From positions 96,001 to 160,000 of the forward strand of contig CAVVLJ010000022.1 of assembly GCA_963749075.1 (NCBI GenBank): a stretch of DNA of 64,000 nt, in the 5' to 3' direction. Below, one piece after another: positions 1,455-64,000 of this stretch; position 1 is the stretch's first letter, and each line of letters starts with the position of its first letter. The notes under the pieces were generated by a model, which searched no databases, was not told where the DNA came from, and saw nothing but the letters and a program-made list of their open reading frames with translations. The position numbers and the translations under genes are program-made. The stretch comes from an uncultured Pseudomonadota bacterium. GTDB lineage: Bacteria > Pseudomonadota > Alphaproteobacteria > JACZXZ01.

Positions 1455-2258
1455 ATGAGCGCCGCCGCGCTCGCCCGCGCCGAGGCGGCCGCGTCGGGAT
1501 CCGCGATCGAGCTCGTCGAGCTGACAAAGACGTTCTGGCGCGGCGGGCAATCCACCGAGGCGCTTGCCGCCATCGATCTCACGGTCAAGGCAGGCGAGTT
1601 CGTCTGTCTGCTCGGGCCTTCGGGATGCGGCAAATCTACGCTTCTGCACATCGTTGCCGGATTCATAAGGCCCGATCTGGGGCAGGTTCTGATTGACGGC
1701 CGCCCGGCGGCGGGCCCTGGTGCCGACCGATGCATGATCTTCCAGTCTCCGACTTTGTTTCCGTGGCTCAGTACGCGCGACAATATTCTTTTCGGCCCGC
1801 GGGCCCAGGGAAAGGCTCTCGATGAGGCGGGGCAGGAAGCGGACAAGCTGCTGGACTTGGTAGGGCTTGTCGGTTTTGGCGAGCATTATCCGCATCAGCT
1901 TTCCGGCGGCATGCGGCACCGTGCGGCGCTTGCCCGCGCGCTCATCAATCACCCCCGGGTGCTGCTGATGGACGAGCCTTTTGCCGCTCTCGACGCCATC
2001 ACGCGCGCCTCGATGCAAGAATTCCTGCTGGAGCTATGGGAGCGCGAACGAACGACGATCGTCTTTGTGACGCACGATGTCGAGGAAGCGACGCTGCTCG
2101 CGGACAGGGTCTGCATCATGTCGGCGCGGCCTGGCCGCATCATGGCGGCGGCGGAGGTTCTCTTGCCGCGGCCCCGCGGCGAGGCCCTGCGCGATGCGCC
2201 GGAGTTCGTGGCACTCCGGCACCAGATGCGCATGGAGCTGGCGAGGGCGTGCCGATGA
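1455..2258 (+). CDS. ABC transporter ATP-binding protein (TauB/SsuB-like)
   Basis: Walker A GPSGCGKST, signature LSGGMRHR, Walker B LLMDEPF, VTHD. Confidence 0.95.
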   Translation: MSAAALARAEAAASGSAIELVELTKTFWRGGQSTEALAAIDLTVKAGEFVCLLGPSGCGKSTLLHIVAGFIRPDLGQVLIDGRPAAGPGADRCMIFQSPTLFPWLSTRDNILFGPRAQGKALDEAGQEADKLLDLVGLVGFGEHYPHQLSGGMRHRAALARALINHPRVLLMDEPFAALDAITRASMQEFLLELWERERTTIVFVTHDVEEATLLADRVCIMSARPGRIMAAAEVLLPRPRGEALRDAPEFVALRHQMRMELARACR

Positions 2259-6165: not shown

Positions 6166-6999
6166 ATGGCCGCAGAGTCGAGCGCCGCAGCGGGCGGGGC
6201 GGCCGGTCGGCCGAGCCGGTGGGCAGGGGGCGGCGGCGCCGTATTGCGGCGGGCTGGGCTCCTGCTTCTGCCCTGGCTCGCCGTGCTCGCCCTGTGGTAC
6301 GCGGCGGCGCTCAGCGGCATGGTCAATCCCGGTCTCATCCCGACTCCATTCCAGGTGGCGGCGCGCTTCTGGCAGCTCCTCATGCGCGAGCGCCTGGCGC
6401 TCGACATCCTCATCTCCGCGGCGCGCGTCGCCGTGGGCGTGATCCTAGGTATCGTCTTCGCCGTGCCGGCGGGCTTCGCCGTCGGCTGGTACCGGCACAT
6501 CCGCACCTTCGTCGACCCGCTCATCAACTTCTTTCGCGCGCTGCCGCCGATCGCGCTGATCCCGCTGGTGATCGTCTACTTCGGCATCGGCGAGCTCGCC
6601 AAGGTGATGATCCTCTTCTATGCCTCGTTCTTCGCCGGCGTCATCGTGATGTACGAGGGCATCGGGCAGATCAGCCCGATCTACGTGCGCGTCGCCCGCA
6701 CGCTCGGTGCCACCGACGGCGAGATCTTCGGCAAAGTCATCATCCCCTTGGCCGTGCCGCATATGATAACGGCATTGCGCGTCGCACTCGGAGTGGCGTG
6801 GGCGACGCTCGTCGCGTCCGAGCTCATCGCGGCGCGGCGCGGCCTGGGCGCGGTCATCGAGAACGCCGCCTCCTTCTTCCAGCTCGACACCATCTATGTC
6901 GGCATCATCTGCATCGGCTTCGTAGCACTGGCCATGGATCTGGTGCTGCGCCTGGTGGCCCGGCGGCTGGTCGGCTGGCAGGAGAGGATCGGCGCATGA
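6166..6999 (+). CDS. ABC transporter permease (SsuC/TauC-like)
   Basis: RALPPIALIP, GIGELAK, ARTLGAT, LVASELIAARRGLG. Confidence 0.93.
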   Translation: MAAESSAAAGGAAGRPSRWAGGGGAVLRRAGLLLLPWLAVLALWYAAALSGMVNPGLIPTPFQVAARFWQLLMRERLALDILISAARVAVGVILGIVFAVPAGFAVGWYRHIRTFVDPLINFFRALPPIALIPLVIVYFGIGELAKVMILFYASFFAGVIVMYEGIGQISPIYVRVARTLGATDGEIFGKVIIPLAVPHMITALRVALGVAWATLVASELIAARRGLGAVIENAASFFQLDTIYVGIICIGFVALAMDLVLRLVARRLVGWQERIGA

Positions 7000-7820
7000 G
7001 CCCGCCGGAGAGCGCAGCGGAGCGCCTCGTCTTCAACCGCGTCTCGGTCGATTTCGCGACGCCCTCCGGGACGCTCAGCGTCGTCGAGGACGTGAGCTTC
7101 GGCATCCGCGACCGGGAATTCGTCTCGATCATCGGCCCATCGGGCTGCGGCAAGACGACGATGATGAACATCGTCGCCGGCTTCGTCTCGCCGACGCGCG
7201 GTTCGGTGACGCTCGACGGCAAGCCCGTCGCCGGGCCGGGGCCGGATCGCGGCGTGATCTTCCAGGAGTACGGCGTCTTTCCCTGGCTGACGGTCGAGCA
7301 GAACATCGATTTCGGCATGAAGCTGCGCGCCAACAATCTGAGCCAAGGCGAGCGCCGCGACATCCGCGAACGCTACATGCGGCTTATGGGACTGTCGGAT
7401 TTCGCGAGAGCCTACCCCAAGACGCTCTCGGGCGGCATGCGCCAGCGCCTGGCGATCGCGCGCGCCTATGCGGTGAAGCCGGTATTCCTCCTCATGGACG
7501 AGCCGTTCGGCGCCCTCGACGCGCAGACGCGCAGTGCGATGCAGAACCTGCTCTTGGAGCTGCTGCACCACGAGGGCAAGACGGTGATGCTCATCACGCA
7601 TTCGGTGGAGGAGGCGCTCTACCTCTCCTCGCGCATCGTCGTCGTCACCGCGCGTCCGGCAACGATCCGCACGATCATCGACGTACCTTTCCCCTATCCG
7701 CGCGGGGAGGGGCTCCACGAGACGGAGGCGTTCGGCGAGCTGCGCTCCGAGGTGCGCGATCTCGTCATGCGCGAATACGCCGCCCAACAGCGGCAAAGCC
7801 AGGCGGCAACCGCCGATTGA
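6996..7820 (+). CDS. ABC transporter ATP-binding protein (SsuB/TauB-like)
   Basis: ATGA overlap; GPSGCGKTT, LSGGMRQR, LLMDEPF. Confidence 0.95.
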   Translation: MSPPESAAERLVFNRVSVDFATPSGTLSVVEDVSFGIRDREFVSIIGPSGCGKTTMMNIVAGFVSPTRGSVTLDGKPVAGPGPDRGVIFQEYGVFPWLTVEQNIDFGMKLRANNLSQGERRDIRERYMRLMGLSDFARAYPKTLSGGMRQRLAIARAYAVKPVFLLMDEPFGALDAQTRSAMQNLLLELLHHEGKTVMLITHSVEEALYLSSRIVVVTARPATIRTIIDVPFPYPRGEGLHETEAFGELRSEVRDLVMREYAAQQRQSQAATAD

Positions 7821-7845
7821 GCGGCTCTTTAGGGAGGACGGAAAG

Positions 7846-8856
7846 ATGACCATGAAGCGACGCAGGTTCCTCGCCGGGCTCGGCGCCGGCGCAGCGCTGA
7901 CGGGTGCTGCGGGCTTGCCCATGCCCGCGCTTGCCCAGGCCGGGCGGAAGATCAAGATCGGCTATCTCCACACGCTCGCGGTCGACGGGCAGATTTGGCT
8001 CGGCGAGCACATGGGGACCTTCCGCAAGGAGGGACTCGACGTCGACTGGGCGCGCTTCACCACCGGCCTCGAGCTCTTCCAGGCGATGATCGGCGGCAGC
8101 ATCGACATGCTGGCGACGGGCGCCGTCATTTCCAATTTCCCGGCGCGCGGCCAAGGGAAGGCTTTCCTCATCAACGACATCGAGTTCGCCACGGCCCAGC
8201 TCTGGGTCCGCCCGGATCAGGGCATCCGCGACTTCGCCGATCTCAAGGGCAAGAGGATCTCGACCACGACCGGCACGACCGCGCATGTCTTTCTCGATCT
8301 GGCGCTGCGCAGCCACGGCCTCGGGCCGGATGACGTCGAGATCGTCAACCAGCGCATGCCGGACGCGGTCACGTCCTTCATCTCGGGCGCCGTTCCGGCG
8401 GTGGCGCTCTGGGTCCCGTTCAACATCGCCGTGCGCACGAAGGTCCCCACGGCGAAAATGCTCGTCGACGCTTCGGCCTATTACCCGAAGTCGGCGATCG
8501 TCGACGGCTGGGCGGCACGCAACGACGTGTACGAGAAGGACAAGGCGGTGCTCCGCCAAGTGATCCGCGCGTGGATACCCGCCAACGACTTCCTGGTGAC
8601 GCAGCCTGACGCGGCGCTCGAGATCATACAGAGCAACTATTACAAGGACGTGCCGCTGCCCGATCTCAAGGAGCAGTACAAGGCGGAGAAGACCTTCACC
8701 GCCGTGGCGTGGCGCAGGCTCTATGCCGACGGCACCGTGACCAAATGGCTCGATCAGGTCACCGACTTTTTCGTGAGGACGGGCGGCATCAGCTCTCCAG
8801 TGCACGCCGGACAATATTTCGATCCGAGCCTCTATCTCGGCCTCGTCAAGGCGTGA
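7846..8856 (+). CDS. ABC substrate-binding protein (SsuA/NMT1-like, Tat signal)
   Basis: MKRRRFL twin-arginine leader; FRKEGLDV, FTTGLELFQAMIGGSID, DLKGKRI. Confidence 0.88.
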   Translation: MTMKRRRFLAGLGAGAALTGAAGLPMPALAQAGRKIKIGYLHTLAVDGQIWLGEHMGTFRKEGLDVDWARFTTGLELFQAMIGGSIDMLATGAVISNFPARGQGKAFLINDIEFATAQLWVRPDQGIRDFADLKGKRISTTTGTTAHVFLDLALRSHGLGPDDVEIVNQRMPDAVTSFISGAVPAVALWVPFNIAVRTKVPTAKMLVDASAYYPKSAIVDGWAARNDVYEKDKAVLRQVIRAWIPANDFLVTQPDAALEIIQSNYYKDVPLPDLKEQYKAEKTFTAVAWRRLYADGTVTKWLDQVTDFFVRTGGISSPVHAGQYFDPSLYLGLVKA

Positions 8857-52376: not shown

Positions 52377-53700
52377 TCAGTCCTCCGCGTCGTCGAGCGC
52401 GCCGGGATTCCCGATCACGTTCCAGCGCCCGCCCACGGCACCGCAGGTGACCGGCACGGCGACGAGGTCGGGGAGATAGTCCGGCCGGTTCTTGACGATG
52501 CTGCCGTTGGCGAAGGCGCGCGTCTGCTTGCCGCCCTCGGCCTCCGAATAGGCGACGGTAACGCCGCCCACGAGCGCCTCGTCCGGCGCCCAGCTGAGCT
52601 TAATCACCTTGACCGGGCGGCCCTCCTCGTCGCGTCCCTGCCAGTGCGCGGCGGTGGGCATGATCGCCTTGCCCACCCCGGGATGGAGCGTGCCGTCGAG
52701 CCCGGCGCCGATCTGGGTGAGCTTGCGCGGGTCCGGGCGATTGGGGCCGTCGAAGTCGAGCGTGGTCCATACTTCCAGATGGTCGCTGCCGATCCACGAG
52801 GCGGGTGCTGCCTGGTCGGGCCGCGGGTCGCGCACCTGCACGACGATGGTGCGCTGGTCGGGCGCCACGAGGCGCAGCTCGACATTGCGCGCGGGATCGG
52901 GGCGGCCGTAGGCGATGAAGGCTCTGCTGGCCTCGAGGCGCGCGGCACAGGTGCCGAGCACGGTGCCGTCGGGGAATGCGCCATTCTTCCGCGTCGGATC
53001 GGCGTTGCCCTCTGCATAGGGGATGTCGATGCCGACGAGGAAGCCGGGCTGGGCCGTCGCCGTCTTGTGCTGGGCCAGAAGCTCGCAGGGATCGTCGGGC
53101 TGCTTCTCCTCGGTCATCTTGGCGTTGTCGATGGCGACCGAGCGCGCCGCGAGGGTGGCGACGTTCGATCCAGCTGAGACTGCCCGAGCCGGTCTCGCTC
53201 GCGCGGAAGCCGCAGCGCTCGATGCTGAGCGTCTTCTGAGGTGCCAACTGGATCGTCACCTTCGTCTGCCAGCGGTCGTTCGAGCCGCCGAGCTGCAGGC
53301 GGCTCATGCGGTTGTCGCCGATCTTGACGGCGTCCATGCCGCGGCCGGCCGAGCCGTAGCCGTCGTTGCACAGCTTGAGAAGGGGCTGCGGCGCTTTGCT
53401 GCCCACGATCAGCCAATATTCGCGGCCGCCGTCATTGTCGCCCTCGCTCTCGCGGCAGCCCTCCTCGGGCGAGTCGTCCGGCTTGTTGGCGAGGCCGAGA
53501 TGCGCCTCCGCGACCACGAGCGGCTCGCCGGCTGGCGACTTCCCCGCCGGCCACAGCTTGGCGATCTCGCAAGCGTGGCGGTCGCCGCAGACGGCAGGCA
53601 TGAAGCGGGCGGCGCCCGCCTCGGCTGCCACGGCCGAGCCCCCCGCTACGGGCAGCGACAGCAAGAGGCCCGCGGCAGCGGCGATGCGGAACGCTCTCAT
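52377..53700 (-). CDS. Exported Cys-rich hypothetical protein, split by one +1 frameshift near 53164
   Basis: Signal peptide MRAFRIAAAAGLLLSLPV...AVAAEA. Removing one base joins ...LSWID to VATLAARSVAIDNAKMTEEK. Motifs LCNDGYGSAG and SDHLEVW. Confidence 0.65.
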
Positions 53701-53806
53701 GAAAAATTGCCTCGCGCGCGGCGATGAACGTCTTGACGCAAAATCAGACGTTTCATGGCCGATGTCAAAAGCTTTCGCCGACGGATTCTTCTCTTGCCGG
53801 CCGGCC

Positions 53807-54136
53807 TCAGTCGCGCAGCGGCCGGCTCGCCACCAGCGGATGATCGGCCGCACTGACATGCTTCGGGCCGGCACCCCCGGGCGCCCCCCAGCCGGTCACC
53901 GCGGCGCTGAAGAAATCCGCATTGGCGGCCTTGTAGGCGACCTCGGCCGCGGGCAGGTCGTCCTCGTCGAAGATGGCGTCGACGGGGCAGACCGAGAGGC
54001 AGAGCCCGCAATTGATGCATTCGGCGGGCTGGATGTACATCATGCGCCCGCCCTCGTAGATGCATTCGACGGGGCACACCGTCTGGCAGGCGCCGTCCTT
54101 CACGTCGATGCAGGCAGAGGCGATGACGTAGCTCAC
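53807..54136 (-). CDS. Ferredoxin (7Fe FdxA-like, actinobacterial style)
   Basis: GTG start; SYVIASACIDVKDGACQTVCPVECIY...ECINCGLCLSVCPVDAIF...GAPGGA...DHPLVA. Confidence 0.88.
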   Translation of the reverse strand: MSYVIASACIDVKDGACQTVCPVECIYEGGRMMYIQPAECINCGLCLSVCPVDAIFDEDDLPAAEVAYKAANADFFSAAVTGWGAPGGAGPKHVSAADHPLVASRPLRD

Positions 54137-54138
54137 GC

Positions 54139-54915
54139 TCAGGCGCCCCGCCATTGCGGTGCGCGCTTCTCCTGGAAGGCGCGCACCCCCTCGTGCTGAT
54201 CGCTCGACTTGAGCGCTGCCACGAGGGCGGGGAGGCGGAGCGACTGGGCCTCCTGCGGCGCAAGGCCGCTTCCCGCCCGCACCGTCTGCTTGATCGCGCG
54301 GATGGAGAGCGGCGCGCAGGCGAGGATGTCCGCGAGCCAGCGTGCGACGGCGGCGTCGATGTATGCGGTCGGCACCACCTCGTTGACGAGCCCGAGCTGC
54401 AAGGCCTCGGTCGCGGAGATGCGCCGGCCGGTCAAAAGCAACCCCATGGCCGCGACATGGGAGATGCGTCGCGGCAGGAGGGTAATGCCGCCCCCGAGCG
54501 GCAAGCGCCCGACGCGCGGCTCCGGCAGGCCGAAGCTCGCGTGCTCGGCGGCGACCACGATGTCGCAGCCGAGCACCATCTCGAAGCCGCCGCCGAGCGC
54601 CAGGCCATTGACGCGGGCGATGACCGGCACGTCGATCTTGTCGTTGAGTGCGATGCCGCCGAAGCCGCCCGGCGGCAAGGCCGCCAGATAGTCGAGGCCG
54701 GTTGGCCCGCCGCTCGCCTTCATGTCGGCGCCGCTCGAGAAGGCGCGCTCGCCCGAGCCCGTGAGCACGACGGCGCGCACGGAGGCGTCCTTCTCGATCT
54801 CCGCCCAGATGCGGACTAGCTCCGCCTCGGTCGCCTCGTCCACGGCGTTGAGGCGCTCCGGGCGGTCGATGGTGACGCGCGCGACGCCGTCCTCGCGCGT
54901 AAAGAGCACGCTCAC
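54139..54915 (-). CDS. Enoyl-CoA hydratase / crotonase family protein (CaiD-like)
   Basis: RPERLNA, FSSGADMK, ALGGGFE, FGLPEPRVG, EGVRAFQEKRAP; both catalytic Glu residues present. Confidence 0.93.
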   Translation of the reverse strand: MSVLFTREDGVARVTIDRPERLNAVDEATEAELVRIWAEIEKDASVRAVVLTGSGERAFSSGADMKASGGPTGLDYLAALPPGGFGGIALNDKIDVPVIARVNGLALGGGFEMVLGCDIVVAAEHASFGLPEPRVGRLPLGGGITLLPRRISHVAAMGLLLTGRRISATEALQLGLVNEVVPTAYIDAAVARWLADILACAPLSIRAIKQTVRAGSGLAPQEAQSLRLPALVAALKSSDQHEGVRAFQEKRAPQWRGA

Positions 54916-56126
54916 GACACCACCTTGCCGCGGTTAAGCGCGGCGATCTTTCCCTCGTCGTAGCCGAGCTCGCCGAGGATCGCCGCGGCATGCTCGCCGA
55001 GCCTTGGCGGGGCGTAGCGCAGGCGGAAGGCCGAGGGGTCCATGGCGATCGGGCTGCCGATGTAGCGCCTCGGCTCGTTGCCGCCGTCGGCTGCCCCGTC
55101 GAGCTCCACCACGATGCCGTTCGCCGCCGTCTGCTCGGAGGCGAGCGCCTCGCCGAGCGTCTGCACGGGTGCCGAGAGGAGGTCCTGCTCCTCGAGGCGG
55201 GCGAGCCAATAAGCCGTCGTGTTGCTTGCGAAGCGCTCGGCGAAGCGGGCCTTGAGCTCGGCCTTGCGGGCCAGCTGGCCGGCGAAGGTGGCGTAGGGCG
55301 GCTCGGCCGAGAGGTCCTCGATGCCGAGGGCGGTGCAAATGTCCCTGAGCGGATTGGCCTTGAAGGCGCCGACCAGCACGAGGGCGCCGTCCGAGGTGCT
55401 GAATACGCCGTTCAGCGGGAAGGCGCCCCAGTTGAGCTCGCGGCGGCGCTGCAGCCACATCGCCGCCTCCTGCATCTGCATCGCCAGCATGGAATCATAG
55501 AGCGAGACGGAGATTTCCTGGCCGCGCCCCGTCTTCTCGCGCTGGAGGAGCGCCAGCAGCACCCCCTGCACCAGATGCATGCCGGCTGCGTAATCGGCGA
55601 GCGCCGTGCAATAGACCGCATAGGGCTGCCGCTCGTCCGAGCGCCGCGCCATCACGCCGGAGAGCGCCTGGGCGAGGATGTCCTGGCCGCCCTTGTGGGC
55701 GAGCGGGCCGCGCGGTCCGTAGCCCGAGCCGAAGGCGGAGATGATGCGCGGGTTGATGGCGGCGAGTGCGGCATGGCCGAAGCCCATGCGCTCCATGACG
55801 CCGGCGCGGAAGTTGTTCACCACCACGTCGGCGGTCTTCACGAGGTCGTAGACGATGGCCTTGCCCGCGGCCCCCCTCAAGTCGATGGCGATCGAGCGCT
55901 TGTTGCGGTTGATGCTGCGGAAGACCGGGTTGTCGAGCCCGTCCGGGTCGTCGGCGAGCGAGGTTCGCGAGAGGTCGCCCACGCCGGGCCGCTCGATCTT
56001 GATCACGTCGGCGCCGTAGTCGGCGAGCATCTGGGTGGCGCAGGGCCCCAGCATCACTTGCGTGAAGTCGATGACGCGGATGCCGGAGAGCGGCTGCGCT
56101 GTACCGTTGGCGGGGCTGCTCGTCAT
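54912..56126 (-). CDS. CoA-transferase family III (CaiB/BaiF)
   Basis: LSGIRVIDF, GADVIKIERP, NRNKRSI, NFRAG, PPRLGEH. Confidence 0.95.
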   Translation of the reverse strand: MTSSPANGTAQPLSGIRVIDFTQVMLGPCATQMLADYGADVIKIERPGVGDLSRTSLADDPDGLDNPVFRSINRNKRSIAIDLRGAAGKAIVYDLVKTADVVVNNFRAGVMERMGFGHAALAAINPRIISAFGSGYGPRGPLAHKGGQDILAQALSGVMARRSDERQPYAVYCTALADYAAGMHLVQGVLLALLQREKTGRGQEISVSLYDSMLAMQMQEAAMWLQRRRELNWGAFPLNGVFSTSDGALVLVGAFKANPLRDICTALGIEDLSAEPPYATFAGQLARKAELKARFAERFASNTTAYWLARLEEQDLLSAPVQTLGEALASEQTAANGIVVELDGAADGGNEPRRYIGSPIAMDPSAFRLRYAPPRLGEHAAAILGELGYDEGKIAALNRGKVVS

Positions 56127-57484
56127 GCCGCCTTCTCTCCCGCATCGAGGGTGGCGTTAGGCGCCGGCACGTCGCCAGGATCGGCGCCCTGGGCGCGCAA
56201 GCGCGCCTGCAGCGCCTTCACGTCCACCTGCTCGACGCCGATGCCGGCATCGAGCGCCAGCGCCGCGGCGAGCCCGGCGGCCTCGCCCATGGCGATGCAG
56301 GGGGGAATCTCGCGCGACACGCGCTGCGCCGCCGAGGTCGCGGAATAGTGCCGCCCGGCGACGAGGAGCTGGCCGACGTTCTTCGGCAGGAGGCAGCGGT
56401 ACGGATAGTAGTAGTCGCGGCCGCGCGCGATGCTGTCGGGGAAGTGGCGGCGGCCCATGACGTCCTCCTTGGTGAGCACGTAGGCGCCATCGAGAAGGCG
56501 CGTCTGGCGGATGCCGAGCTGGGGCGCCACGTCGACCACATAGGCGTTCCTGAAGCCGGGCATCCTTTCGCGCACGAATTCGACGAGGCGGGCGATGCGC
56601 TGGCGCCCCTCGAAATCGGCGCGCGTCAGGTCCTCGATCTTGAGCCCGTCGTAGCCGGCCATGTGCGGGCAGTTGCACCACACGACGCCGGGGAGCGGCG
56701 TCTTGAGCCACCATTTGTCCCAGGAGCCGCCCGTGATCCGCTTCGCCTCGCGGTCGATGGCGTTGAAGGCCGCGGGCTCGGCATATTCGAAGCGCTCGGC
56801 CTCCTCGGTGTCGACCGCGCCCAAGCGGAAGACGGTGGTCACTATGAAGCTGCCCGCAATGAAGGCAGCACCGGCGGAGGCCGCCACGTCGAGATCGCCC
56901 GTCGCGTCCACCACGATGCCGCCGAGGATGGCCTGGCGGCCGGCCTTGCCCTCGACGATGACGCCCGCGACGCGGCCCTCCTCGACGATCGCCTTGGAGA
57001 ACCAGCTGTGCAGGCGCAGGTTCACCTTCGCCTCGGCGATCATGTCGTTCGAGACGCGCTTGAAGCCGTCGGGATCGAAGGCGACGGAATAGCAGATGGG
57101 CTGCGGCTTCTCGTGCGCGGTGAAGTCGAAGAGGCCCCAGCGCGACCACTTGCGCCACATCGCCCAGTCGGCGCGGCGGTCCGCCTCGGGCGGCGACACG
57201 GCGAGGCCGAGCCGCTCCATGCGCTCGATCATCTCCGTCGAGAGGCCGCGCACGCTGATCTCGCTGCCGTTGCACATGTCGTCGAGCACGAGGACCATGC
57301 CGCCCGACGCAAGGCCGCCTAGATAGGGATAGCGCTCGAGGAGGGCGACCTTGAGGCCGTTCCGCGCTCCCGACACGGCAGCACCTATGCCGGCCGGCCC
57401 GCCTCCCACCACGACGAGATCGGCGCGCGCCGCCACGGGAACGCGCTCGCCCGGCTCGTCGATCCAGTCGCTCGCGATACTCAT
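56123..57484 (-). CDS. FAD-dependent oxidoreductase (uncharacterised family)
   Basis: VVGGGPAGIGAA, ERYPYLGG, VDATGD, PYRCLLP, LLVAGR, GEAAG. Confidence 0.88.
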   Translation of the reverse strand: MSIASDWIDEPGERVPVAARADLVVVGGGPAGIGAAVSGARNGLKVALLERYPYLGGLASGGMVLVLDDMCNGSEISVRGLSTEMIERMERLGLAVSPPEADRRADWAMWRKWSRWGLFDFTAHEKPQPICYSVAFDPDGFKRVSNDMIAEAKVNLRLHSWFSKAIVEEGRVAGVIVEGKAGRQAILGGIVVDATGDLDVAASAGAAFIAGSFIVTTVFRLGAVDTEEAERFEYAEPAAFNAIDREAKRITGGSWDKWWLKTPLPGVVWCNCPHMAGYDGLKIEDLTRADFEGRQRIARLVEFVRERMPGFRNAYVVDVAPQLGIRQTRLLDGAYVLTKEDVMGRRHFPDSIARGRDYYYPYRCLLPKNVGQLLVAGRHYSATSAAQRVSREIPPCIAMGEAAGLAAALALDAGIGVEQVDVKALQARLRAQGADPGDVPAPNATLDAGEKAA

Positions 57485-57527
57485 GGGCGGGTCTCCTTGT
57501 CGATGAGGGGACGAGCGGACACGGCGC

Positions 57528-58388
57528 TCAGCCCGCGAGCGCCACGTTCCACTTGATGACGCGGCGCTCGATGGCGGTGATCGCGGCGAAGAAGAGGGCG
57601 GAGAAGGTCGAGCCGACGACGATGGTGGCGTAGAGCAAGGGCGAGTCGAAGTTGTAGGTGGCCTGGATGATGAGCGCGCCGATGCCGACGTTGGAGCCGA
57701 TCCATTCGCCCACGATGGCGCCGATCACCGCGGTCGAGGCGGCGATCTTGAGGGCCGAGAAGAGATAGGGCAGCGCGTTCTGCACCCGGAGCTTGAAGAA
57801 GATCTCCCGCCCGCTCGCCGACAGCACCTTCATGAGCTCGAGCGCCTGGGGATTCACGTCGCGCAGGCCGCGGGTCATGTTGACGAGGGTGGGGAAGAAG
57901 CAGACCAGCGCCGCGATGGCGATCTTGGGCTCCATGCCGTTGCCGAGGAGGAGCACGAGGATGGGCGCCTTGGCCACCACCGGGATGGTGTTGACCATGA
58001 CCGCGATGGGGAAGAGGGCCTCCTCGATCGCCTTCTTCTGCACGAAGAAGGTGGCGATCGCGATGGCGGTCAGGTTGCCGAGGAGAAAGCCGAGCACCGC
58101 CTCGATCGCGGTCGGCAGCAGGTTCTCCATGAGGAGAGCGAAGCGGCCGGCGAGCACATGGAGGACGGCTGCCGGCGTGGGTGCGATGAAGGGCTTGATG
58201 TCGAGGAGGATCACGGCACCCCACCAGAGGGCCACGAAGCCCACGACCGCCAGCGCGGGCAGCAGACGCTTGCGCCACTCGAGCATGCGCCGGGCGTGGA
58301 GGAACCTCGCCTTCGCCTCCTCGTCGTGGGCGAAGGAGGGGCCGGAGGGTGCGGAGCGCGGACGCCCGCCTATGGTCTCGTCGCTCAT
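57528..58388 (-). CDS. ABC permease (NitT/TauT family)
   Basis: TIPVVAKAPIL, FFPTLVN, ALPYLFSALKI, AIVGEW. Confidence 0.93.
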   Translation of the reverse strand: MSDETIGGRPRSAPSGPSFAHDEEAKARFLHARRMLEWRKRLLPALAVVGFVALWWGAVILLDIKPFIAPTPAAVLHVLAGRFALLMENLLPTAIEAVLGFLLGNLTAIAIATFFVQKKAIEEALFPIAVMVNTIPVVAKAPILVLLLGNGMEPKIAIAALVCFFPTLVNMTRGLRDVNPQALELMKVLSASGREIFFKLRVQNALPYLFSALKIAASTAVIGAIVGEWIGSNVGIGALIIQATYNFDSPLLYATIVVGSTFSALFFAAITAIERRVIKWNVALAG

Positions 58389-59212
58389 CAGCAGGTCTCC
58401 AGCACGCGGCGCAGGTGGCCGGCGAGGGCCACGAATTGCGCGCTCTCGCGCAACGCGAGGCGGCGCGGGCTCGGCAGCTCGACCGGCACCAGCTCGCGCA
58501 CGCGGCCCGGCCTCGCTGCGAGCAGCAGCACCTCCTGGCCGAGGAAGGCCGCCTCGTAGATCGAATGGGTGACGAAGAGGATGGTGGTGCCGGTCGAGCT
58601 CCAGAGGCCGAGGAGCTCCTCGTTGAGCCGGTCGCGCGTGATCTCGTCGAGCGCGCCGAAGGGCTCGTCCATGAGGAGGAGCTTGGGCTCCGTGACGAGC
58701 GCGCGGGCGAGCGCCACGCGCTGGCGCATGCCGCCCGAGAGCTCGTGGGGATAGGCGTGCTCCCAGCCGGCAAGACCGACCATGGCGAGGAGCTCGCCGG
58801 CGCTGCTGGCGCCCGCGCGCGCGGCACCGCCCCCGACCTCGAGCGGCAGCATCACGTTGGCGAGCACCGTGCGCCACGGCAGGAGGGCCGGGTCCTGGAA
58901 GACGAAGCCGATGTCGCGGTTCTTGCGCGCTGCCGCCGGCGGCTTGCCCAGCACGCTCAGCGAGCCGGCACTGGGTGCGATGAGATCGGCGATGACGCGC
59001 AGGAGGGTCGATTTGCCGCAGCCCGAGGGGCCGAGAAGACTCACGAAGCCGCCGCGCGCGACCGTGAGGCTCACGTCCTCGAGCGCCGTGATGACGCCGC
59101 GCTCGCTTACGAAGCGCACGGAGAGGCCCTCGCAGCGGACGGCCGCCTCGGCAGGCCCAGGAGATGCCGCGCGCTCGCGCTGTGCCGCCGCCGCCTCGCC
59201 CGCCATCGCCAT
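58388..59212 (-). CDS. ABC ATP-binding protein (NitT/TauT family)
   Basis: GPSGCGKST, LSGGMRQR, LMDEPFGALD. Confidence 0.95.
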   Translation of the reverse strand: MAMAGEAAAAQRERAASPGPAEAAVRCEGLSVRFVSERGVITALEDVSLTVARGGFVSLLGPSGCGKSTLLRVIADLIAPSAGSLSVLGKPPAAARKNRDIGFVFQDPALLPWRTVLANVMLPLEVGGGAARAGASSAGELLAMVGLAGWEHAYPHELSGGMRQRVALARALVTEPKLLLMDEPFGALDEITRDRLNEELLGLWSSTGTTILFVTHSIYEAAFLGQEVLLLAARPGRVRELVPVELPSPRRLALRESAQFVALAGHLRRVLETC

Positions 59213-59222
59213 CGCTTGCTGC

Positions 59223-60263
59223 CTATCCGAGCTTCGCGCGCGCGTCCTTGGTCGCGGCGAGGATGTCCGTGTCGATCACTTCCGCGAGCTTGGGCGGGCC
59301 GGCGGAGAACTGCTTGAGCTGGTCGTAGAGATCGATCTGCTCCTGCCACACCGCGGGCTCGAAGGTGCCCCAGCCCTTGGCCTTGGTGGCGGCGGTGAAT
59401 TCGAACTTGAGCATCGTGCCCACCGCGGCGAGCTCGTCCTTCTCGACGAGGTTGGGGTATTCCTTGAGCAGAAGGCCGACCGCCTTCTCGGGGTTCTCGT
59501 AGGTGTAGGCCCAGCCGCGCGAGGCCGCGCGCACGAAGGCCTCGAGCAGCGCGGCCTTGTGCGCGAGCGTGTCGGTGGTCGCGTAATAGGGCTGGGCGTA
59601 GAGCTTGACCCCCTCGTCCCACAGGCGCATGGCGACGAAATTGCCGCCGAGGGCCCGGAGCGCCGTGGTATTGGTGAGCCAGCCCGTGACCGCCGCCACT
59701 TGGCCGGTCACCACCGGCGACATGTCGGAGCCGATCACCACCACCTCGACGTCCTTCTCGGGGATGTTGTGCTTCTCGAGGAGGGCCGTGAGCAGGATCT
59801 TGCCGGTCGCCTGGATGCCGATCTTCTTGCCGACCATGTCCTCGGGCGTGCGGATGGGATCCTTGGGCAGCGAGAAGAAGGCGTAGGGATGCTCCTGGGC
59901 GCCGACCGCGAAGCATTTGACCGGCAGCTTCTGGGAGGCGGCGAGCATGAGCGAGGGGCTCGAGGAGACCTGGCCGATCTCGAAGCGCCCGGAGGCGACG
60001 ATGGCGACGCCGTCGATGCTCGGGCCGCCCGGCTGGATGGCGAGGTTGAGCTTCTCCTCCTCGAAATAGCCGAGCTGCTTCGCCGCGCACTCGCCGATCT
60101 GGTTGCCGCCGCCGATCCAGCCGAGCTGGAGATTGACCGTGGTGGTCTTGGCCTGGGTGTGGCCGATGCGCGGCGCCAGGCCCGCGATCGCAAGTCCGCC
60201 CGCGGCCGCACCTCCCCGCATCAGAGCCCGCCGCGTCAGCCGCCAAGAGCTTCCTTTTGTCAT
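59223..60263 (-). CDS. ABC substrate-binding protein (NMT1/THI5-like, Tat signal)
   Basis: TRRALM leader; LQLGW, GYFEEEKL, QPGGP, PEDMVGKKIG, ASRGW. Confidence 0.88.
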   Translation of the reverse strand: MTKGSSWRLTRRALMRGGAAAGGLAIAGLAPRIGHTQAKTTTVNLQLGWIGGGNQIGECAAKQLGYFEEEKLNLAIQPGGPSIDGVAIVASGRFEIGQVSSSPSLMLAASQKLPVKCFAVGAQEHPYAFFSLPKDPIRTPEDMVGKKIGIQATGKILLTALLEKHNIPEKDVEVVVIGSDMSPVVTGQVAAVTGWLTNTTALRALGGNFVAMRLWDEGVKLYAQPYYATTDTLAHKAALLEAFVRAASRGWAYTYENPEKAVGLLLKEYPNLVEKDELAAVGTMLKFEFTAATKAKGWGTFEPAVWQEQIDLYDQLKQFSAGPPKLAEVIDTDILAATKDARAKLG

Positions 60264-60401
60264 CGTCGAGATCTCCCAGGTTCCCGTCAGCGCAAAATCG
60301 GCGCCCGGCCGGTGCCCTAGAATAGAAGAGTTTTTCGCCTATGGTGATGCTTTTTTGCCAGTGTGCCAGTTCGAATTTCCGGGAACGGAGATGAGGCTTC
60401 G

Positions 60402-60549
60402 CCCCTCTCCTCCTTCAGGAGGGAGGGGGCCATCCCGGATGGATGGGAGGGTGAGGAGGCCGAGCGCTTGCGCGCCCGTGCGGCCGACGATGTGCCCGGC
60501 AAAGCCACCTCCTCACCCCGACCCTCTCCTCCTGAAGGAGGAGAGGGGG
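60402..60549. repeat. REP/REPIN-like nested inverted repeat element
   Basis: CCCCTCTCCTCCTTCAGGAGGGAGGGGG...GGGTGAGGAGG / CCTCCTCACCC...CCCTCTCCTCCTGAAGGAGGAGAGGGG. Confidence 0.78.
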
Positions 60550-60565
60550 ATTGTCCAGTGATTTC

Positions 60566-60581
60566 TTGACTGTTTGGTCAA
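60566..60581. promoter_or_regulatory. RutR-type operator
   Basis: TTGACTGTTTGGTCAA versus the RutR consensus TTGACCAnnTGGTCAA (2 mismatches); a RutR-like gene lies in the same operon. Confidence 0.75.
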
Positions 60582-60627
60582 TTTTCGCCAGAGTTGCCGT
60601 TTGAGGGATTGGGGCGATCCCAGGGCG

Positions 60628-61860
<1,233 letters not shown>

Positions 61861-61863
61861 CGC

Positions 61864-63126
61864 TTGGCAGCGGTGCAGCACGGCAGTCCCCGTACCCAGC
61901 CCCTCGACGAAGGAGCGGATGCACGGCGCCTGAGCACGGCCGCGGCGGTGCGCGAGCGCGCGGCGCGCATGCTTGCGATGGCGGAGCGTGACGAGCTCCC
62001 TCATTTCGCGCTCGTGCCCGAGCGCCTCCCGGGCGTCATCGATTACGTCCTCGAGACGACGCGGCAGCGCTATCCGGACCTCGCCGTCCCGTTCCACAGC
62101 CGCTGGCGGCACTTCTCGGCGGGCGGGTGCCAACGCTGGTCGGAGCTCGCGGCATCGCTCGGCGGCGTGCCGCCGGACGAGGTGGCGCGCATCCGCTGCG
62201 ATCTCGCGGTGGTGAGCGTGCTGCTCGACGCGGGTGCCGGCGAAGGCTGGTGCTATCGCGAGGCCGGCGGGGGCGCATACGCGCGCTCCGAGGGCCTCGC
62301 GGTCGCGAGCTACCACATGTTCACGAGCGGGCTCTTCTCGGCCGATCCGCACGCCCCCTATCGCGCGGACGCCTCGGCGCTCGCCGCCGTCACGGACGAT
62401 CGCCTCGCCTCGGCGCTGCAGGCGAGCGCGCGCAATCCCATGGTCGGGCTCGCCGGACGTGCAGCCCTTCTCCGCCGTCTCGGCGCCGCACTTCTCGCGG
62501 AGCCGGCGCTCTTCGGCTCGCCGCCGCGCGTCGGCCGCATCTTCGATCATCTCCGCCAGCGCGCGGCGGGTGCCGCGCTGCCGGCAAGCGAGATCCTCGC
62601 GGCCGTCATGCGCGGGCTGGGACCCATCTGGCCGGGCCGCGAGAGCCTCGGTGGCGTCAACCTGGGCGACGTCTGGCGCCATTCCGCCATGCGCACGGGC
62701 GACGCCACGGAGAGCCTGATGCCGTTCCACAAGCTCTCCCAGTGGCTCGCCTATTCGCTCATCGAGCCGCTCGCGGAGGGCGGCGTGCCGGTCGCCGGGA
62801 TCGACGAGCTGACCGGCCTCGCCGAATACCGCAACGGCGGCCTCATGATCGACGGCGGCCTCCTCGTGCCGCGCGACCCGACGCTCCTCGGCCGGCGGCT
62901 TTCGCCAGGCGACGAAGCAGTGGTGGAATGGCGCGCGCTCACCGTGGCGCTCCTCGACCGCATCGCCGAGGGACTGCGCGCGGTGCTCGGTGTTGACGCC
63001 GTGCGGCTTCCCTTGGCCTCGGTGCTCGAGGGCGGCACCTGGGCGGCCGGCCGGCGCATCGCCCGCGAGCGCCGACCCGACGGCGGCCCGCCGCTCGTCG
63101 TCGAGAGCGACGGGACCCTGTTCTGA
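61864..63126 (+). CDS. DUF1688 / URC4 family protein (start uncertain)
   Basis: [59 protein letters not shown]. Confidence 0.9.
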
Positions 63127-63155: not shown

Positions 63156-63788
63156 ATGGCCGGCAACGTCTTCGTCATCGATCATCCGCTCGCCCAGCAC
63201 AAGCTCACCCTCATGCGCCGCAAGGAGACCTCGACCGGCGAGTTCCGCCTGCTCGTGCGCGAGATCAGTCCCTTCATGCTCTACGAGGTGACGCGCGACC
63301 TGCCGCTCACCGAACGCGAGATCGAGACGCCGCTCCAGACCATGAAGGCGCCGGTCTTGGCGGGAAAGAAGCTCTGCCTCGTGCCGATCCTGCGTGCCGG
63401 GCTCGGCTTCGTGGATGCCATGCTCGATCTCGTGCCCGCGGCGCGCGTCGGGCACATCGGCCTCTACCGCGATCCCGAAAGCCTCGCCGCGGTCGAATAC
63501 TATTTGAAGCTGCCGGAGGACATCGCGTCCCGCCGGGTGATCCTCGTCGATCCCATGCTGGCGACCGGGCATTCCGCGACCGCGGCACTCGGCCGGCTCA
63601 AGGAGGCGGGAGCGGAGAACATCAAGTTCGTCTGCCTGGTGGCGGCACCGGTCGGCATCGCCGAGGTCCAGGCCGAGCATCCCGACGTGCCGATCTACAC
63701 GGTGGCGATCGACGAGAGGCTCAACGACCATGCCTACATTCTCCCCGGGCTGGGGGACGCCGGTGACCGGCTCTTCGGCACCAAGTAA
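63156..63788 (+). CDS. upp: Uracil phosphoribosyltransferase
   Basis: [48 protein letters not shown]. Confidence 0.97.
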
Positions 63789-64000
63789 GGCAGCACCCGC
63801 CAAGGGCCGCATCCGGCGCTCGAACGAGGAGAGCATCCTGCGCGCCGCCGAGGAGGTCTTCGCGCGCGCGGGCTTCGGCGGCGCGCGCGTGGCCGACATC
63901 GCCCGACGCGCCGGCATCCCGCAGGCCAACCTGCATTACTATTTCAGGACCAAGCGCAGGCTCTACCGCGCCGTGCTCGAGAACATCCTCGAGCTGTGGT
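63763..64000 (+). CDS. TetR family regulator, RutR-like (partial; runs off the window edge)
   Basis: Not in the ORF track. GTG at 63763 gives ...[65 protein letters not shown]. Confidence 0.85.

Follow-up and report, generated by a model that had tools for sequence, protein, structure and literature searches.

Organisation of the locus

The window analysed here, the whole stretch of 64,000 nt from an uncultured alphaproteobacterium, carries at positions 53807-60263 seven genes, all on the minus strand, whose junctions vary between an overlap of 4 nt and a gap of 43 nt (Table 1). They encode an ABC importer, a FAD-dependent oxidoreductase (hereafter the flavoprotein), a CoA-transferase, a crotonase and a ferredoxin, and are referred to below as the cassette. 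Profile matches and gene junctions confirmed the seven tightly coupled genes, and the gene calls, of the preliminary description of this DNA. The permease ATG overlaps the ATPase stop codon by 1 nt, the flavoprotein gene follows the permease gene after 43 nt with an AAGGAG motif 8 nt ahead of its ATG, the CoA-transferase and crotonase genes are each joined to the preceding gene by a 4-nt overlap, and the ferredoxin gene has a GTG start 2 nt beyond the crotonase stop. Terminator-like sites between 53400 and 60700 were not above chance (4 vs 2.4 +/- 1.8 in shuffled sequences). Database names for the cassette proteins were generic throughout.

Table 1. Features of the cassette and of the adjoining URC side (positions in the window)
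Feature	Position	Strand	Evidence or remark
7Fe-type (FdxA-like) ferredoxin	53807..54136	-	NF045480 FdxA_Actino, 128.4 bits vs cut-off 125
Crotonase-family enoyl-CoA hydratase/dehydratase	54139..54915	-	PF00378, 201 bits vs cut-off 27
Family III (CaiB/BaiF/Frc-type) CoA-transferase	54912..56126	-	PF02515, 353 bits, full length
PF12831 FAD-dependent oxidoreductase, predicted ferredoxin partner	56123..57484	-	292.5 bits vs cut-off 27
ABC transporter permease	57528..58388	-	PF00528 (BPD_transp_1), 99 bits
ABC transporter ATPase	58388..59212	-	PF00005, 113 bits
NMT1/THI5-like periplasmic binding protein, NitT/TauT-type ABC importer	59223..60263	-	PF09084, 153 bits
Putative promoter/operator-like motif, upstream of the binding-protein gene	60312..60366	-	By-eye comparison
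Dispersed repeat copy, ~150 bp, two palindromic hairpins ~124 bp apart	60400..60552	.	Between both promoters
RutR-box-like 16-bp palindrome	60566..60581	+	46 nt upstream of URC1 ATG, 303 nt from binding-protein start
URC1/UrcA-like cyclohydrolase (outside cassette)	60628..61860	+	PF12471 + PF00925; NF005536, 731 bits
URC4 / DUF1688 (outside cassette)	61864..63126	+	PF07958, 477 bits
upp, uracil phosphoribosyltransferase (outside cassette)	63156..63788	+	PF14681, 260 bits; NF001097, 291 bits
RutR-like TetR regulator gene, 5' part, continues beyond window end	63730..64000	+	PF00440

All three importer components scored above their Pfam cut-offs. The solved sequences nearest to the binding protein were 4NMY (E 5e-18) and the pyrimidine-binding ThiY (3IX1, E 2e-13), TauA being far weaker among them (E 3e-6). 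Assignment to the taurine or aliphatic sulfonate importers (TauA, SsuA) was not supported at the NCBIfam cut-offs, none of which the binding protein reached (SsuA family 40 vs 163.5, TauA 33 vs 304-490). The top NCBIfam matches of the ATPase, taurine and SaoA ATPases, were both under cut-off. By eye, the N-terminus of the binding protein resembles a twin-arginine signal. The likeness to the ThiXYZ pyrimidine-salvage importer lies in the PF09084 family and in the rank of ThiY as second-best solved match; similarity is low, however, and the cassette importer adjoins catabolic CoA enzymes rather than thiamine salvage genes. A pyrimidine may be its cargo.

The CoA-transferase covers positions 1-365 of the 366 of the PF02515 profile. 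With E values of about 1e-56 to 1e-58, formyl-CoA transferases and succinate-hydroxymethylglutarate CoA-transferase rank nearest to it among solved sequences. It fell under all NCBIfam equivalog cut-offs, including those for formyl-CoA transferase (247 vs 442), succinate-glutarate (226 vs 750), mesaconate (196 vs 700) and carnitine CoA-transferase (CaiB, 110 vs 413). The best NCBIfam matches of the crotonase were likewise all under cut-off (DpgD 267 vs 400, EchA19, CaiD 180 vs 500). Two Glu-bearing motifs typical of hydratases, placed by eye in its translation, are what we take to be putative catalytic-glutamate sites. 3-Hydroxypropionate may be a substrate of these enzymes.

The cassette is divergent from the URC1/UrcA-URC4-upp genes and the RutR-like gene, with a 364-bp spacer (60264-60627) between the binding-protein gene and URC1, whose likely ATG lies at 60628. 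The solved matches of URC1 are 7EEV and 7EJ3 (E 1e-175). For the RutR-like regulator, the full-length protein from L088 had RutR as best family, under cut-off (TIGR03613 196 vs 368, NF011584 177 vs 230). The promoter/operator-like motif was recognised by eye in the window and in 11 LysR-linked loci, among 19 upstream regions compared, and appears to be shared with cassettes that have a divergent LysR gene; in the sister species G004 its promoter-proximal half lies between upp and the binding-protein gene. When up to 3 mismatches are allowed and both strands are counted, the 22-nt hairpin core of the repeat has 188 matches in this genome (G000), which corresponds to about 94 sites. The 16-bp palindrome, which we take to be RutR-box-like, is the sole match in the window to the RutR consensus at up to 2 mismatches; at up to 3 mismatches, the same consensus gave 3 matches in the window vs 0.56 expected. 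The assembly of this genome yielded no copy of the LysR regulator gene that usually accompanies the cassette, and the cassette and URC1-URC4-upp-rutR face away from each other; joint expression with uracil breakdown is hence probable. The control region shared with URC genes, as initially described, holds for this locus and for this locus only.

Flavoprotein and ferredoxin

No full-length match to the flavoprotein was obtained among solved sequences, its FAD-binding N-terminus alone being matched. Its AlphaFold model (pLDDT 82, pTM 0.88) gave best TM-scores of 0.45-0.50 in a Foldseek comparison with the PDB, FixC (7KOE chain C) being among the matches (TM 0.44), and PF00890, of the fumarate reductase/succinate dehydrogenase type, matched weakly (E 5e-6). 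Acyl-CoA dehydrogenase and AcuI-type MDR enzyme were both ruled out as identities by profile, sequence and Foldseek matches. Orthologues in other genomes are 60-83% identical; at E <= 1e-20, more than 4000 relatives were counted among 8000 candidates scored, mostly from soil Alphaproteobacteria and Acidobacteriota.

Seven Cys residues of the ferredoxin (9, 17, 21, 40, 43, 46 and 50), invariant in 21 orthologues, form the pattern C-x7-C-x3-C-P followed by C-x2-C-x2-C-x3-C-P, presumably that of 3Fe and 4Fe clusters. The predicted complex of flavoprotein and ferredoxin scored 0.80 vs 0.00 for the best control, a score reached by 58/80 solved complexes and 2/110 mismatched pairs, rates that apply only approximately here, since alignments of our own were supplied. 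The runs shared at least 93% of contacts, with a partner pLDDT of at least 91, and the predicted interface sets the ferredoxin cluster loop 41-49 against the conserved flavoprotein residues 248-258, C272 and H274. The ferredoxin gene is absent from its usual place in 12 cassettes, 11 of them otherwise complete and the twelfth, L062, cut by a contig end.

Distribution and genomic neighbourhood of the cassette

The cassette was found in 70 other species, and is far beyond a chance run of open reading frames because the identical gene order recurs there. All seven genes occur in order at 48 of the 70 loci; the others comprise 11 six-gene loci lacking the ferredoxin there, nine loci cut by contig ends and two anomalous ones (L057, L070). 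Wherever the contig extends that far, the importer is coupled to the enzymes. Cultured carriers include Reyranella soli, Chelatococcus caeni, Vineibacter terrae, Microvirga and Enhydrobacter aerosaccus. A LysR regulator gene is a neighbour at 44/70 loci, and past it the flanks are mostly lineage-specific.

The preliminary description had seen the cassette as supplying steps for bacterial URC loci, to be checked by co-occurrence with URC1 and URC4. Within the flanks examined, URC1, URC4 and upp are beside none of the 70 other-species loci, so that regular adjacency across genomes, as for an accessory URC gene set, was not found. URC adjacency is confined to this genus, in two arrangements, divergent here and co-directional (URC4-upp-binding protein) in G004. 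In a sample of 401 genomes of the class, 14 of which hold the cassette, counts ignoring relatedness and genome size gave URC4 in 7/14 cassette genomes vs 27/387 others (Fisher one-sided 4e-5, kinship and genome size uncontrolled); the other seven carriers are without it. The operon thus usually occurs without URC genes, which the same description had named as the first half of what would speak against it, and the reading of the cassette as a URC-specific extension was not borne out, URC adjacency being peculiar to this genus. Dihydropyrimidinase was counted in 13/14 cassette genomes vs 98/387 others, TIGR02033 also picking up hydantoinases that are not pyrimidine-specific. PreA occurs in 5/14 (background 41/291), and URC4 or PreA in 11/14, three carriers (G085, G227, G287) having neither. 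RutA was found in 0/14 cassette genomes, but its rarity leaves this control without power.

The cassette is conserved as a unit and repeatedly placed beside pyrimidine or nucleobase genes. Two deaminase types are mutually exclusive neighbours, a TRZ/ATZ amidohydrolase at 22/70 loci and a CDA-fold deaminase at 15/70, both together at 0/70; within the flanks examined, 33/70 loci have no deaminase. The deaminase gene lies inside the operon at some loci (e.g. L048, L050, L069, L066, G069). Among solved proteins, those closest to the TRZ/ATZ neighbour deaminate methylthioadenosine/S-adenosylhomocysteine rather than pyrimidines. RihA-like nucleoside hydrolase genes accompany the cassette in Acidobacteriota, immediately upstream of it in L056 and also on its upstream side in L055. 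In L013, a 39% homologue is located ~6 kb downstream. In G069 and L018 the cassette is joined to a full reductive pyrimidine cluster (PreT-PreA-PydC-dihydropyrimidinase), with dihydropyrimidinase co-directional and directly after the cassette. In G069, cassette, TRZ/ATZ and dihydropyrimidinase genes occupy one strand, adjoining PreT, PreA, an M20 carbamoyl-amidase and a second NMT1 importer; in L018, dihydropyrimidinase and PreA lie beside the cassette. The second NMT1 importer of the reductive cluster is beside the cassette in G069, L018, L025 and L040, the binding proteins being 24% identical. Since the pyrimidine-breakdown neighbours differ by lineage, the cassette probably handles a small acid from such breakdown. 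These data support a link to pyrimidine catabolism that is not URC-specific: of the pyrimidine connection first proposed, what stands is carried by the deaminases, the RihA-like hydrolases, the reductive cluster and the enrichment of URC4 and dihydropyrimidinase, and what falls is URC adjacency as its basis.

Possible function of the cassette

Several known systems offer comparisons. The E. coli carnitine operon comprises CaiT, CaiA, CaiB and CaiD with FixABCX, FixC and FixX providing an electron route of flavoprotein and small ferredoxin-like protein. The cassette is similar in its family III CoA-transferase and crotonase, which could run a CoA shuttle on a 3-substituted acid, and in a possible flavoprotein redox step on an enoyl-CoA with electrons passing through a flavoprotein/ferredoxin-like pair; it differs in having a PF12831 flavoprotein instead of an acyl-CoA dehydrogenase and an ABC importer instead of a BCCT antiporter. 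None of the seven genes encodes a CaiA-type acyl-CoA dehydrogenase, ETF (FixAB), a CaiT antiporter or a CoA ligase. In the reductive assimilation of 3-hydroxypropionate, 3-hydroxypropionyl-CoA is converted through acrylyl-CoA to propionyl-CoA, as described, with AcuI of Rhodobacter sphaeroides, in PMC6572756. CoA activation, crotonase-type dehydration and enoyl-CoA reduction match the enzyme classes of the cassette. Its candidate reductase, a flavoprotein with a 7Fe ferredoxin, is however unrelated to the acrylyl-CoA reductases known so far, which are either MDR enzymes that depend on NADPH or complexes of an acyl-CoA dehydrogenase with ETF. The bacterial URC operon (UrcA/URC1, URC4/DUF1688, upp) adjoins the cassette here and in the sister species G004, and cassette genomes are enriched in URC4, but no gene family is common to both and half of the carriers lack URC. 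With the reductive pyrimidine cluster (PreT/PreA, dihydropyrimidinase, carbamoyl-amidase, NMT1-type importer) the cassette shares the importer family, whereas the enzymes differ.

We tentatively favour, at somewhat less than an even chance, a module, complete in itself and accessory to pyrimidine (nucleobase) catabolism, that would convert a 3-substituted propionate, via its CoA ester and acryloyl-CoA, to propionyl-CoA; what we infer here is the substrate, the cargo of the importer, and both the sequence and the direction of the reactions. The seven genes would form one transcription unit, in a module that moves between genomes. The TauA/ThiY-family importer would take up the substrate or a close precursor, and the CoA-transferase would load a small 3-substituted propionate onto CoA, candidates being the compounds in which pyrimidine ring cleavage ends (3-hydroxypropionate, beta-alanine or 3-ureidopropionate) and, where thymine is the source, the corresponding 2-methyl compounds. 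The crotonase would then eliminate the 3-substituent as water, ammonia or urea to yield acryloyl-CoA; crotonase-like CoA-dependent ammonia lyases acting on beta-amino acids are described in PMC4619459. Finally, acryloyl-CoA would be reduced to propionyl-CoA by the PF12831 flavoprotein, with the 7Fe ferredoxin of the cassette as its electron source. A more specific version appears unlikely to us: that flavoprotein and dedicated ferredoxin are a novel two-component ferredoxin-dependent enoyl-CoA oxidoreductase, and the cassette an undescribed CoA-dependent branch of pyrimidine degradation in which 3-ureidopropionate, beta-alanine or 3-hydroxypropionate would be CoA-activated, lose urea, ammonia or water to the crotonase, and end as propionyl-CoA, plugging into the URC or the reductive pathway.

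Several observations go against the favoured reading. The flavoprotein is unlike known enoyl-CoA reductases, the 12 cassettes mentioned lack the ferredoxin at its usual place, and 7/14 carriers lack URC4, three of them PreA as well. Moreover, a binding protein nearest to ThiY and linked to enzymes fits an imported heterocycle better than a C3 acid made internally, and deaminases and nucleoside hydrolases work on bases or nucleosides, a stage that precedes any C3 acid. The cassette might instead act before ring opening, a rather doubtful possibility in our estimate: it would import a modified or aminated pyrimidine, or an N-heterocycle, with a carboxyl or carboxyalkyl side chain, the neighbouring deaminase would remove the amino group, and CoA-transferase, flavoprotein-ferredoxin and crotonase would strip or rework the side chain, uracil, thymine or a dihydropyrimidine being passed to URC or reductive ring opening. 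A binding protein nearest to ThiY, itself a binder of a substituted aminopyrimidine, the constant fusion of importer and enzymes, the two non-homologous deaminases that replace one another beside or inside the operon, the nucleoside hydrolases upstream in Acidobacteriota and URC4 or PreA in 11 of 14 carriers agree with this, and the second NMT1 importer at four loci suggests two different imported bases. Yet no result points to any candidate natural substrate, the three enzymes come without a thiolase, lyase or decarboxylase and so offer no obvious side-chain removal, the 33 loci have no deaminase within the flanks examined, and the solved relatives of TRZ/ATZ act on methylthioadenosine and S-adenosylhomocysteine.

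The same enzyme set would also suit an oxidative route, for which the DmdB-DmdC-DmdD route offers a model. By that analogy, the flavoprotein would dehydrogenate a 3-substituted propionyl-CoA, with ferredoxin as acceptor, to a 3-substituted acryloyl-CoA, and hydration by the crotonase would expel urea, ammonia or a thiol to give 3-oxopropionyl-CoA, the CoA being passed to the next substrate. In its favour are the dihydropyrimidinase gene that immediately follows the cassette in G069 and L018, and whose enzyme yields 3-ureidopropionate, the pairing of family III transferase and crotonase, apt for a CoA shuttle, and the weak PF00890 similarity. We nevertheless regard it as quite unlikely: the flavoprotein lies outside the acyl-CoA dehydrogenases, the cassette encodes no partner for re-oxidation, and 7Fe FdxA-type ferredoxins are low-potential carriers and hence poor acceptors for the acyl-CoA/enoyl-CoA couple. 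Distinctly improbable, too, is a reading without any link to pyrimidines, in which the cassette would be a mobile operon under LysR control that serves a different imported organic acid (such as a dicarboxylate, an aromatic acid or a propionate that contains sulfur), and in which the neighbours would reflect how accessory catabolic genes cluster in large soil genomes. It would account for the 70 loci without URC genes near and for the mostly lineage-specific flanks; the best matches of the CoA-transferase are dicarboxylate enzymes (formyl-CoA:oxalate, succinate-glutarate, succinate-hydroxymethylglutarate), NitT/TauT importers transport many kinds of solute, and both genome size and ecology act as confounders in the co-occurrence statistics. 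Four kinds of nucleobase or pyrimidine genes (deaminases of two families, a nucleoside hydrolase, the reductive cluster and URC) nevertheless recur beside the cassette across phyla and orders, some inside the operon; URC adjacency outlived rearrangement within this genus; and, as far as the rare RutA can tell, carriers do not hold every pyrimidine gene.

The cassette is common in soil bacteria and uncharacterised. If it is pyrimidine-linked, it would fill a gap in the use by soil bacteria of the carbon left after ring cleavage, or in the feeding of unusual bases into cleavage, and would provide a first reaction for PF12831, a large flavoprotein family without a close solved structure. The comparative pattern, with URC in one genus, the reductive cluster in another and deaminases elsewhere, narrows the candidate substrates.

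Organisation and conservation of the cassette

The seven cassette genes had been taken for a tightly packed unit in the preliminary description, and this is borne out, as all lie on the minus strand with junctions ranging from a 4-nt overlap to a 43-nt gap. Terminator-like sites within the unit showed no excess over chance. Directly on the 3' side of the ferredoxin gene, two ORFs overlap in different frames. One of them begins like a signal peptide, and the 246-aa ORF gave no match in Pfam; a frameshift in a single gene or a fault in the assembly may account for them. Other NitT/TauT-type ABC components were also present in the window, including a binding-protein-like ORF and two ATPase homologues (39-48 % identity to the cassette ATPase).

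Features of the cassette and its surroundings (window coordinates)
Feature	Position	Strand	Remarks
NMT1/THI5-like binding protein	59223-60263	minus	PF09084, 153 bits
ABC ATPase	58388-59212	minus	PF00005
Permease	57528-58388	minus	ATG overlaps ATPase stop by 1 nt
Flavoprotein	56123-57484	minus	PF12831, 292 bits; AAGGAG 8 nt 5' of ATG; 43-nt gap
Family III CoA-transferase	54912-56126	minus	353 bits; 4-nt overlap
Crotonase	54139-54915	minus	201 bits; 4-nt overlap
Ferredoxin	53807-54136	minus	GTG start, 2 nt past crotonase stop
Overlapping ORF pair	52377-53874	minus	
Other NitT/TauT-type ABC components	about 6166-8856 and 1560-2231		
Binding-protein-like ORF	7846-8856		
ATPase homologues	1560-2231 and 6987-7757		
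Upstream motif	about 60312-60366		
Dispersed element	60400-60552		
Palindrome (candidate RutR box)	60566-60581		

The cassette is a conserved unit. Using the flavoprotein as query and one genome per species, 70 loci were retrieved at 63-79 % flavoprotein identity from Acidobacteriota and from Alphaproteobacteria (i.e. Reyranella, Inquilinus, Vineibacter, Microvirga, Chelatococcus, Methylocapsa, Roseiarcus and many uncultured lineages). The complete set of seven genes was found in the window's order at 48 loci, and a further 11 carry six genes without the ferredoxin at its usual place. Contig ends interrupt the cassette at nine loci, one of which (L062) is also without ferredoxin, and two loci (L057 and L070) are anomalous. 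Whole genomes supplied 13 more loci, all of them with the cassette, and some of these genomes may come from species already among the 70. Distant paralogues of the flavoprotein in two other genomes (G019, 38 % identity; G035, 36 %) and on contig C20 of the window's own genome (30 %) have no related cassette in their neighbourhoods.

Neighbouring genes and a probable link with pyrimidines

In the window, a 364-bp spacer separates the cassette from URC1, which is followed by URC4 (DUF1688, 477 bits), upp and a TetR gene that scores highest against the RutR family, yet below its cut-off. Neither the URC operon nor UrcA is new (Andersen 2008; Zhang 2021; both cited in PMC12507026), and URC1 matches the solved structures 7EEV and 7EJ3 (E 1e-175). 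The preliminary description proposed that the cassette supplies steps of the URC route, and co-occurrence with URC1/URC4 was one of the checks on this. At locus level the association did not hold: within the available flanks (median upstream 7.3 kb, downstream 8.0 kb), none of URC1, URC4 and upp was found (E <= 1e-10) at any of the 70 loci in other species. Within the genus, the cassette was found in one of the five other species, i.e. the sister species G004, whose contigs are co-directional throughout (URC1-URC4; URC4-upp-binding protein-ATPase-permease; flavoprotein-transferase-crotonase-ferredoxin). As the layout in the window is divergent, the adjacency to URC genes has been kept in two different arrangements. 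A member of the same family, G008, has both the cassette and the URC genes, on separate contigs.

Upstream of the binding-protein gene, a motif was recognized by eye that also occurs at 11 LysR-linked loci among 19 upstream regions, and its promoter-proximal half is found in G004. Between this motif and URC1 lies a dispersed element of ~150 bp with two palindromic hairpins ~124 bp apart, the hairpin core of which gives 188 matches on both strands, i.e. ~94 sites in the genome. Recombination between its copies could have caused the rearrangement. Another copy is located on contig C17 of the window's genome (~761139), where the ORF of a TRZ/ATZ amidohydrolase orthologue ends; in other species this gene stands next to the cassette. 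Finally, a 16-bp palindrome is located 46 nt upstream of the URC1 ATG; it matches the RutR consensus with two mismatches, and is a candidate RutR box. No RNA sequencing run containing the stretch is listed; two soil-metagenome DNA runs, both from a single study, contain part of it.

When the flanking ORFs of the 70 loci were clustered, three neighbours alone proved recurrent, namely a LysR regulator, a TRZ/ATZ amidohydrolase and a CDA-fold deaminase (PF00383). The regulator is encoded at 44 loci, divergently and directly upstream at 39 of them, and at all 13 additional whole-genome loci; no orthologue was detected by tblastn in the window's genome (assembly 96 % complete; best match 25 % identical, E 4e-12). 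The TRZ/ATZ amidohydrolase (22 loci) is closest among solved sequences to methylthioadenosine/S-adenosylhomocysteine deaminases, and its orthologue in the window's genome, on another contig, is 58-61 % identical. The CDA-fold protein (15 loci) is closest to dCMP deaminases and to 7FH4, its best solved match, which is cited in a preprint on 5-methylcytosine-selective deaminases. The two deaminases never occur together at one locus, and are therefore read as unrelated enzymes performing the same deamination; at several loci one of them is placed inside the cassette operon.

Other neighbours were found at fewer loci. In Acidobacteriota, a secreted nucleoside hydrolase is encoded upstream of the cassette at L055 and directly upstream at L056, its best family matches being the pyrimidine-specific RihA, RihC and UriH, each below cut-off. 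In genome G069 (flavoprotein 82 % identical to the one in the window), the TRZ/ATZ gene and then a dihydropyrimidinase come after the cassette in the same orientation. Facing the cassette are a PreT-like gene, PreA (708 bits; cut-off 335), a carbamoyl-amidase of the M20 family and a second importer of the NMT1 type. This arrangement is shared by L018 for dihydropyrimidinase and PreA, and by L025 and L040 for the second importer. At these three loci and in G069 (L089, contig C47), the second importer belongs to a reductive pyrimidine cluster; its binding protein is ~24 % identical to that of the cassette, so that two different importers of the same family stand side by side.

Co-occurrence was further assessed in 401 genomes of the class, including that of the window, among which 14 carriers were defined by the flavoprotein (E <= 1e-100). 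URC4 was present in 7 of the 14 carriers vs 27 of the 387 others, and dihydropyrimidinase (TIGR02033, a model that also picks up other hydantoinases) in 13 vs 98 (Fisher test ignoring relatedness and genome size, 4e-5 and 4e-7, respectively). At genome level, URC4 is commoner in carriers, and half of them are without it. RutA, included as a control and as an alternative source of 3-hydroxypropionate, was found in no carrier vs 11 others at E <= 1e-100 (6 over cut-off) and, with 6-11 of 401 genomes, is too rare to give the test power. PreA was detected in 5 carriers (background of 41/291 in a separate sample), and URC4 or PreA in 11 of the 14; neither was found in G085, G227 and G287. These counts favour a link with pyrimidines, as support and not as proof. 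In the window's genome, no PreA was found. Its only strong match to the dihydropyrimidinase model (PRK13404, 798 bits; contig C2, 119092-121652, i.e. L090, 11092-13652) adjoins a nitrilase-superfamily amidase; together the two may act as a hydantoinase/carbamoylase and not in a reductive pyrimidine pathway.

The flavoprotein and its ferredoxin

The flavoprotein aligns to solved sequences over its FAD-binding N-terminus only. Its AlphaFold model (21 orthologues as input; pLDDT 82, pTM 0.88) was compared with the PDB by Foldseek and matched nothing beyond generic FAD folds of two domains, none above TM 0.5 (best matches: geranylgeranyl reductase-like 3OZ2, MnmG, FixC 7KOE and phenol-hydroxylase types), giving no functional assignment, and its ESM Atlas clusters all carry the generic name 'FAD-dependent oxidoreductase'. 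The ferredoxin exceeds the cut-off of the FdxA model (128.4 vs 125) and has seven invariant cysteines. Cys25 is nearly invariant; it is replaced by Ser in L011, L013, L004 and relatives (Inquilinus, Vineibacter), which retain the seven cluster-binding cysteines, and this fits Cys25 as a non-ligand of the cluster.

Prediction of the flavoprotein-ferredoxin complex gave a score of 0.80, the best control scoring 0.00; 58/80 solved complexes and 2/110 mismatched pairs reach this mark, a benchmark that is roughly applicable, own alignments having been used. At least 93 % of contacts agree between runs, with partner pLDDT of at least 91. In the predicted interface, the cluster loop of the ferredoxin (residues 41-49) faces conserved flavoprotein residues 248-258, C272 and H274. 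As a prediction, this lends support to binding of the ferredoxin by the flavoprotein.

Candidate reactions of the cassette

In the main texts of the openly accessible literature, we found no description of the cassette, nor of any PF12831 reaction. The parts belong to known families; no account of their combination, nor of the flavoprotein-ferredoxin pair, exists in that literature.

Where a family III transferase stands beside a crotonase, the two form a CoA shuttle for a 3-substituted acid, the carnitine system being an example, and cleavage of the pyrimidine ring ends in 3-substituted propionates. Together, these two points lead to a reading as CoA transfer, elimination and reduction. The cassette might instead be an upstream module acting on a modified or aminated base, as the ThiY-like binding protein and neighbours acting at base level would suggest; we regard this as rather unlikely. 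An oxidative variant, in which dehydrogenation comes first and the substituent is then expelled, appears improbable. Equally improbable is an acid operon unrelated to pyrimidines.

Among crotonase-like proteins there are also CoA-dependent ammonia lyases whose substrates are beta-amino acids (PMC4619459). For the route by CoA transfer, elimination and reduction, which we put forward tentatively, as possible but short of probable, the CoA-transferase would place CoA onto a 3-substituted propionate and the crotonase would eliminate the substituent to give acryloyl-CoA, which the flavoprotein-ferredoxin pair would reduce to propionyl-CoA.
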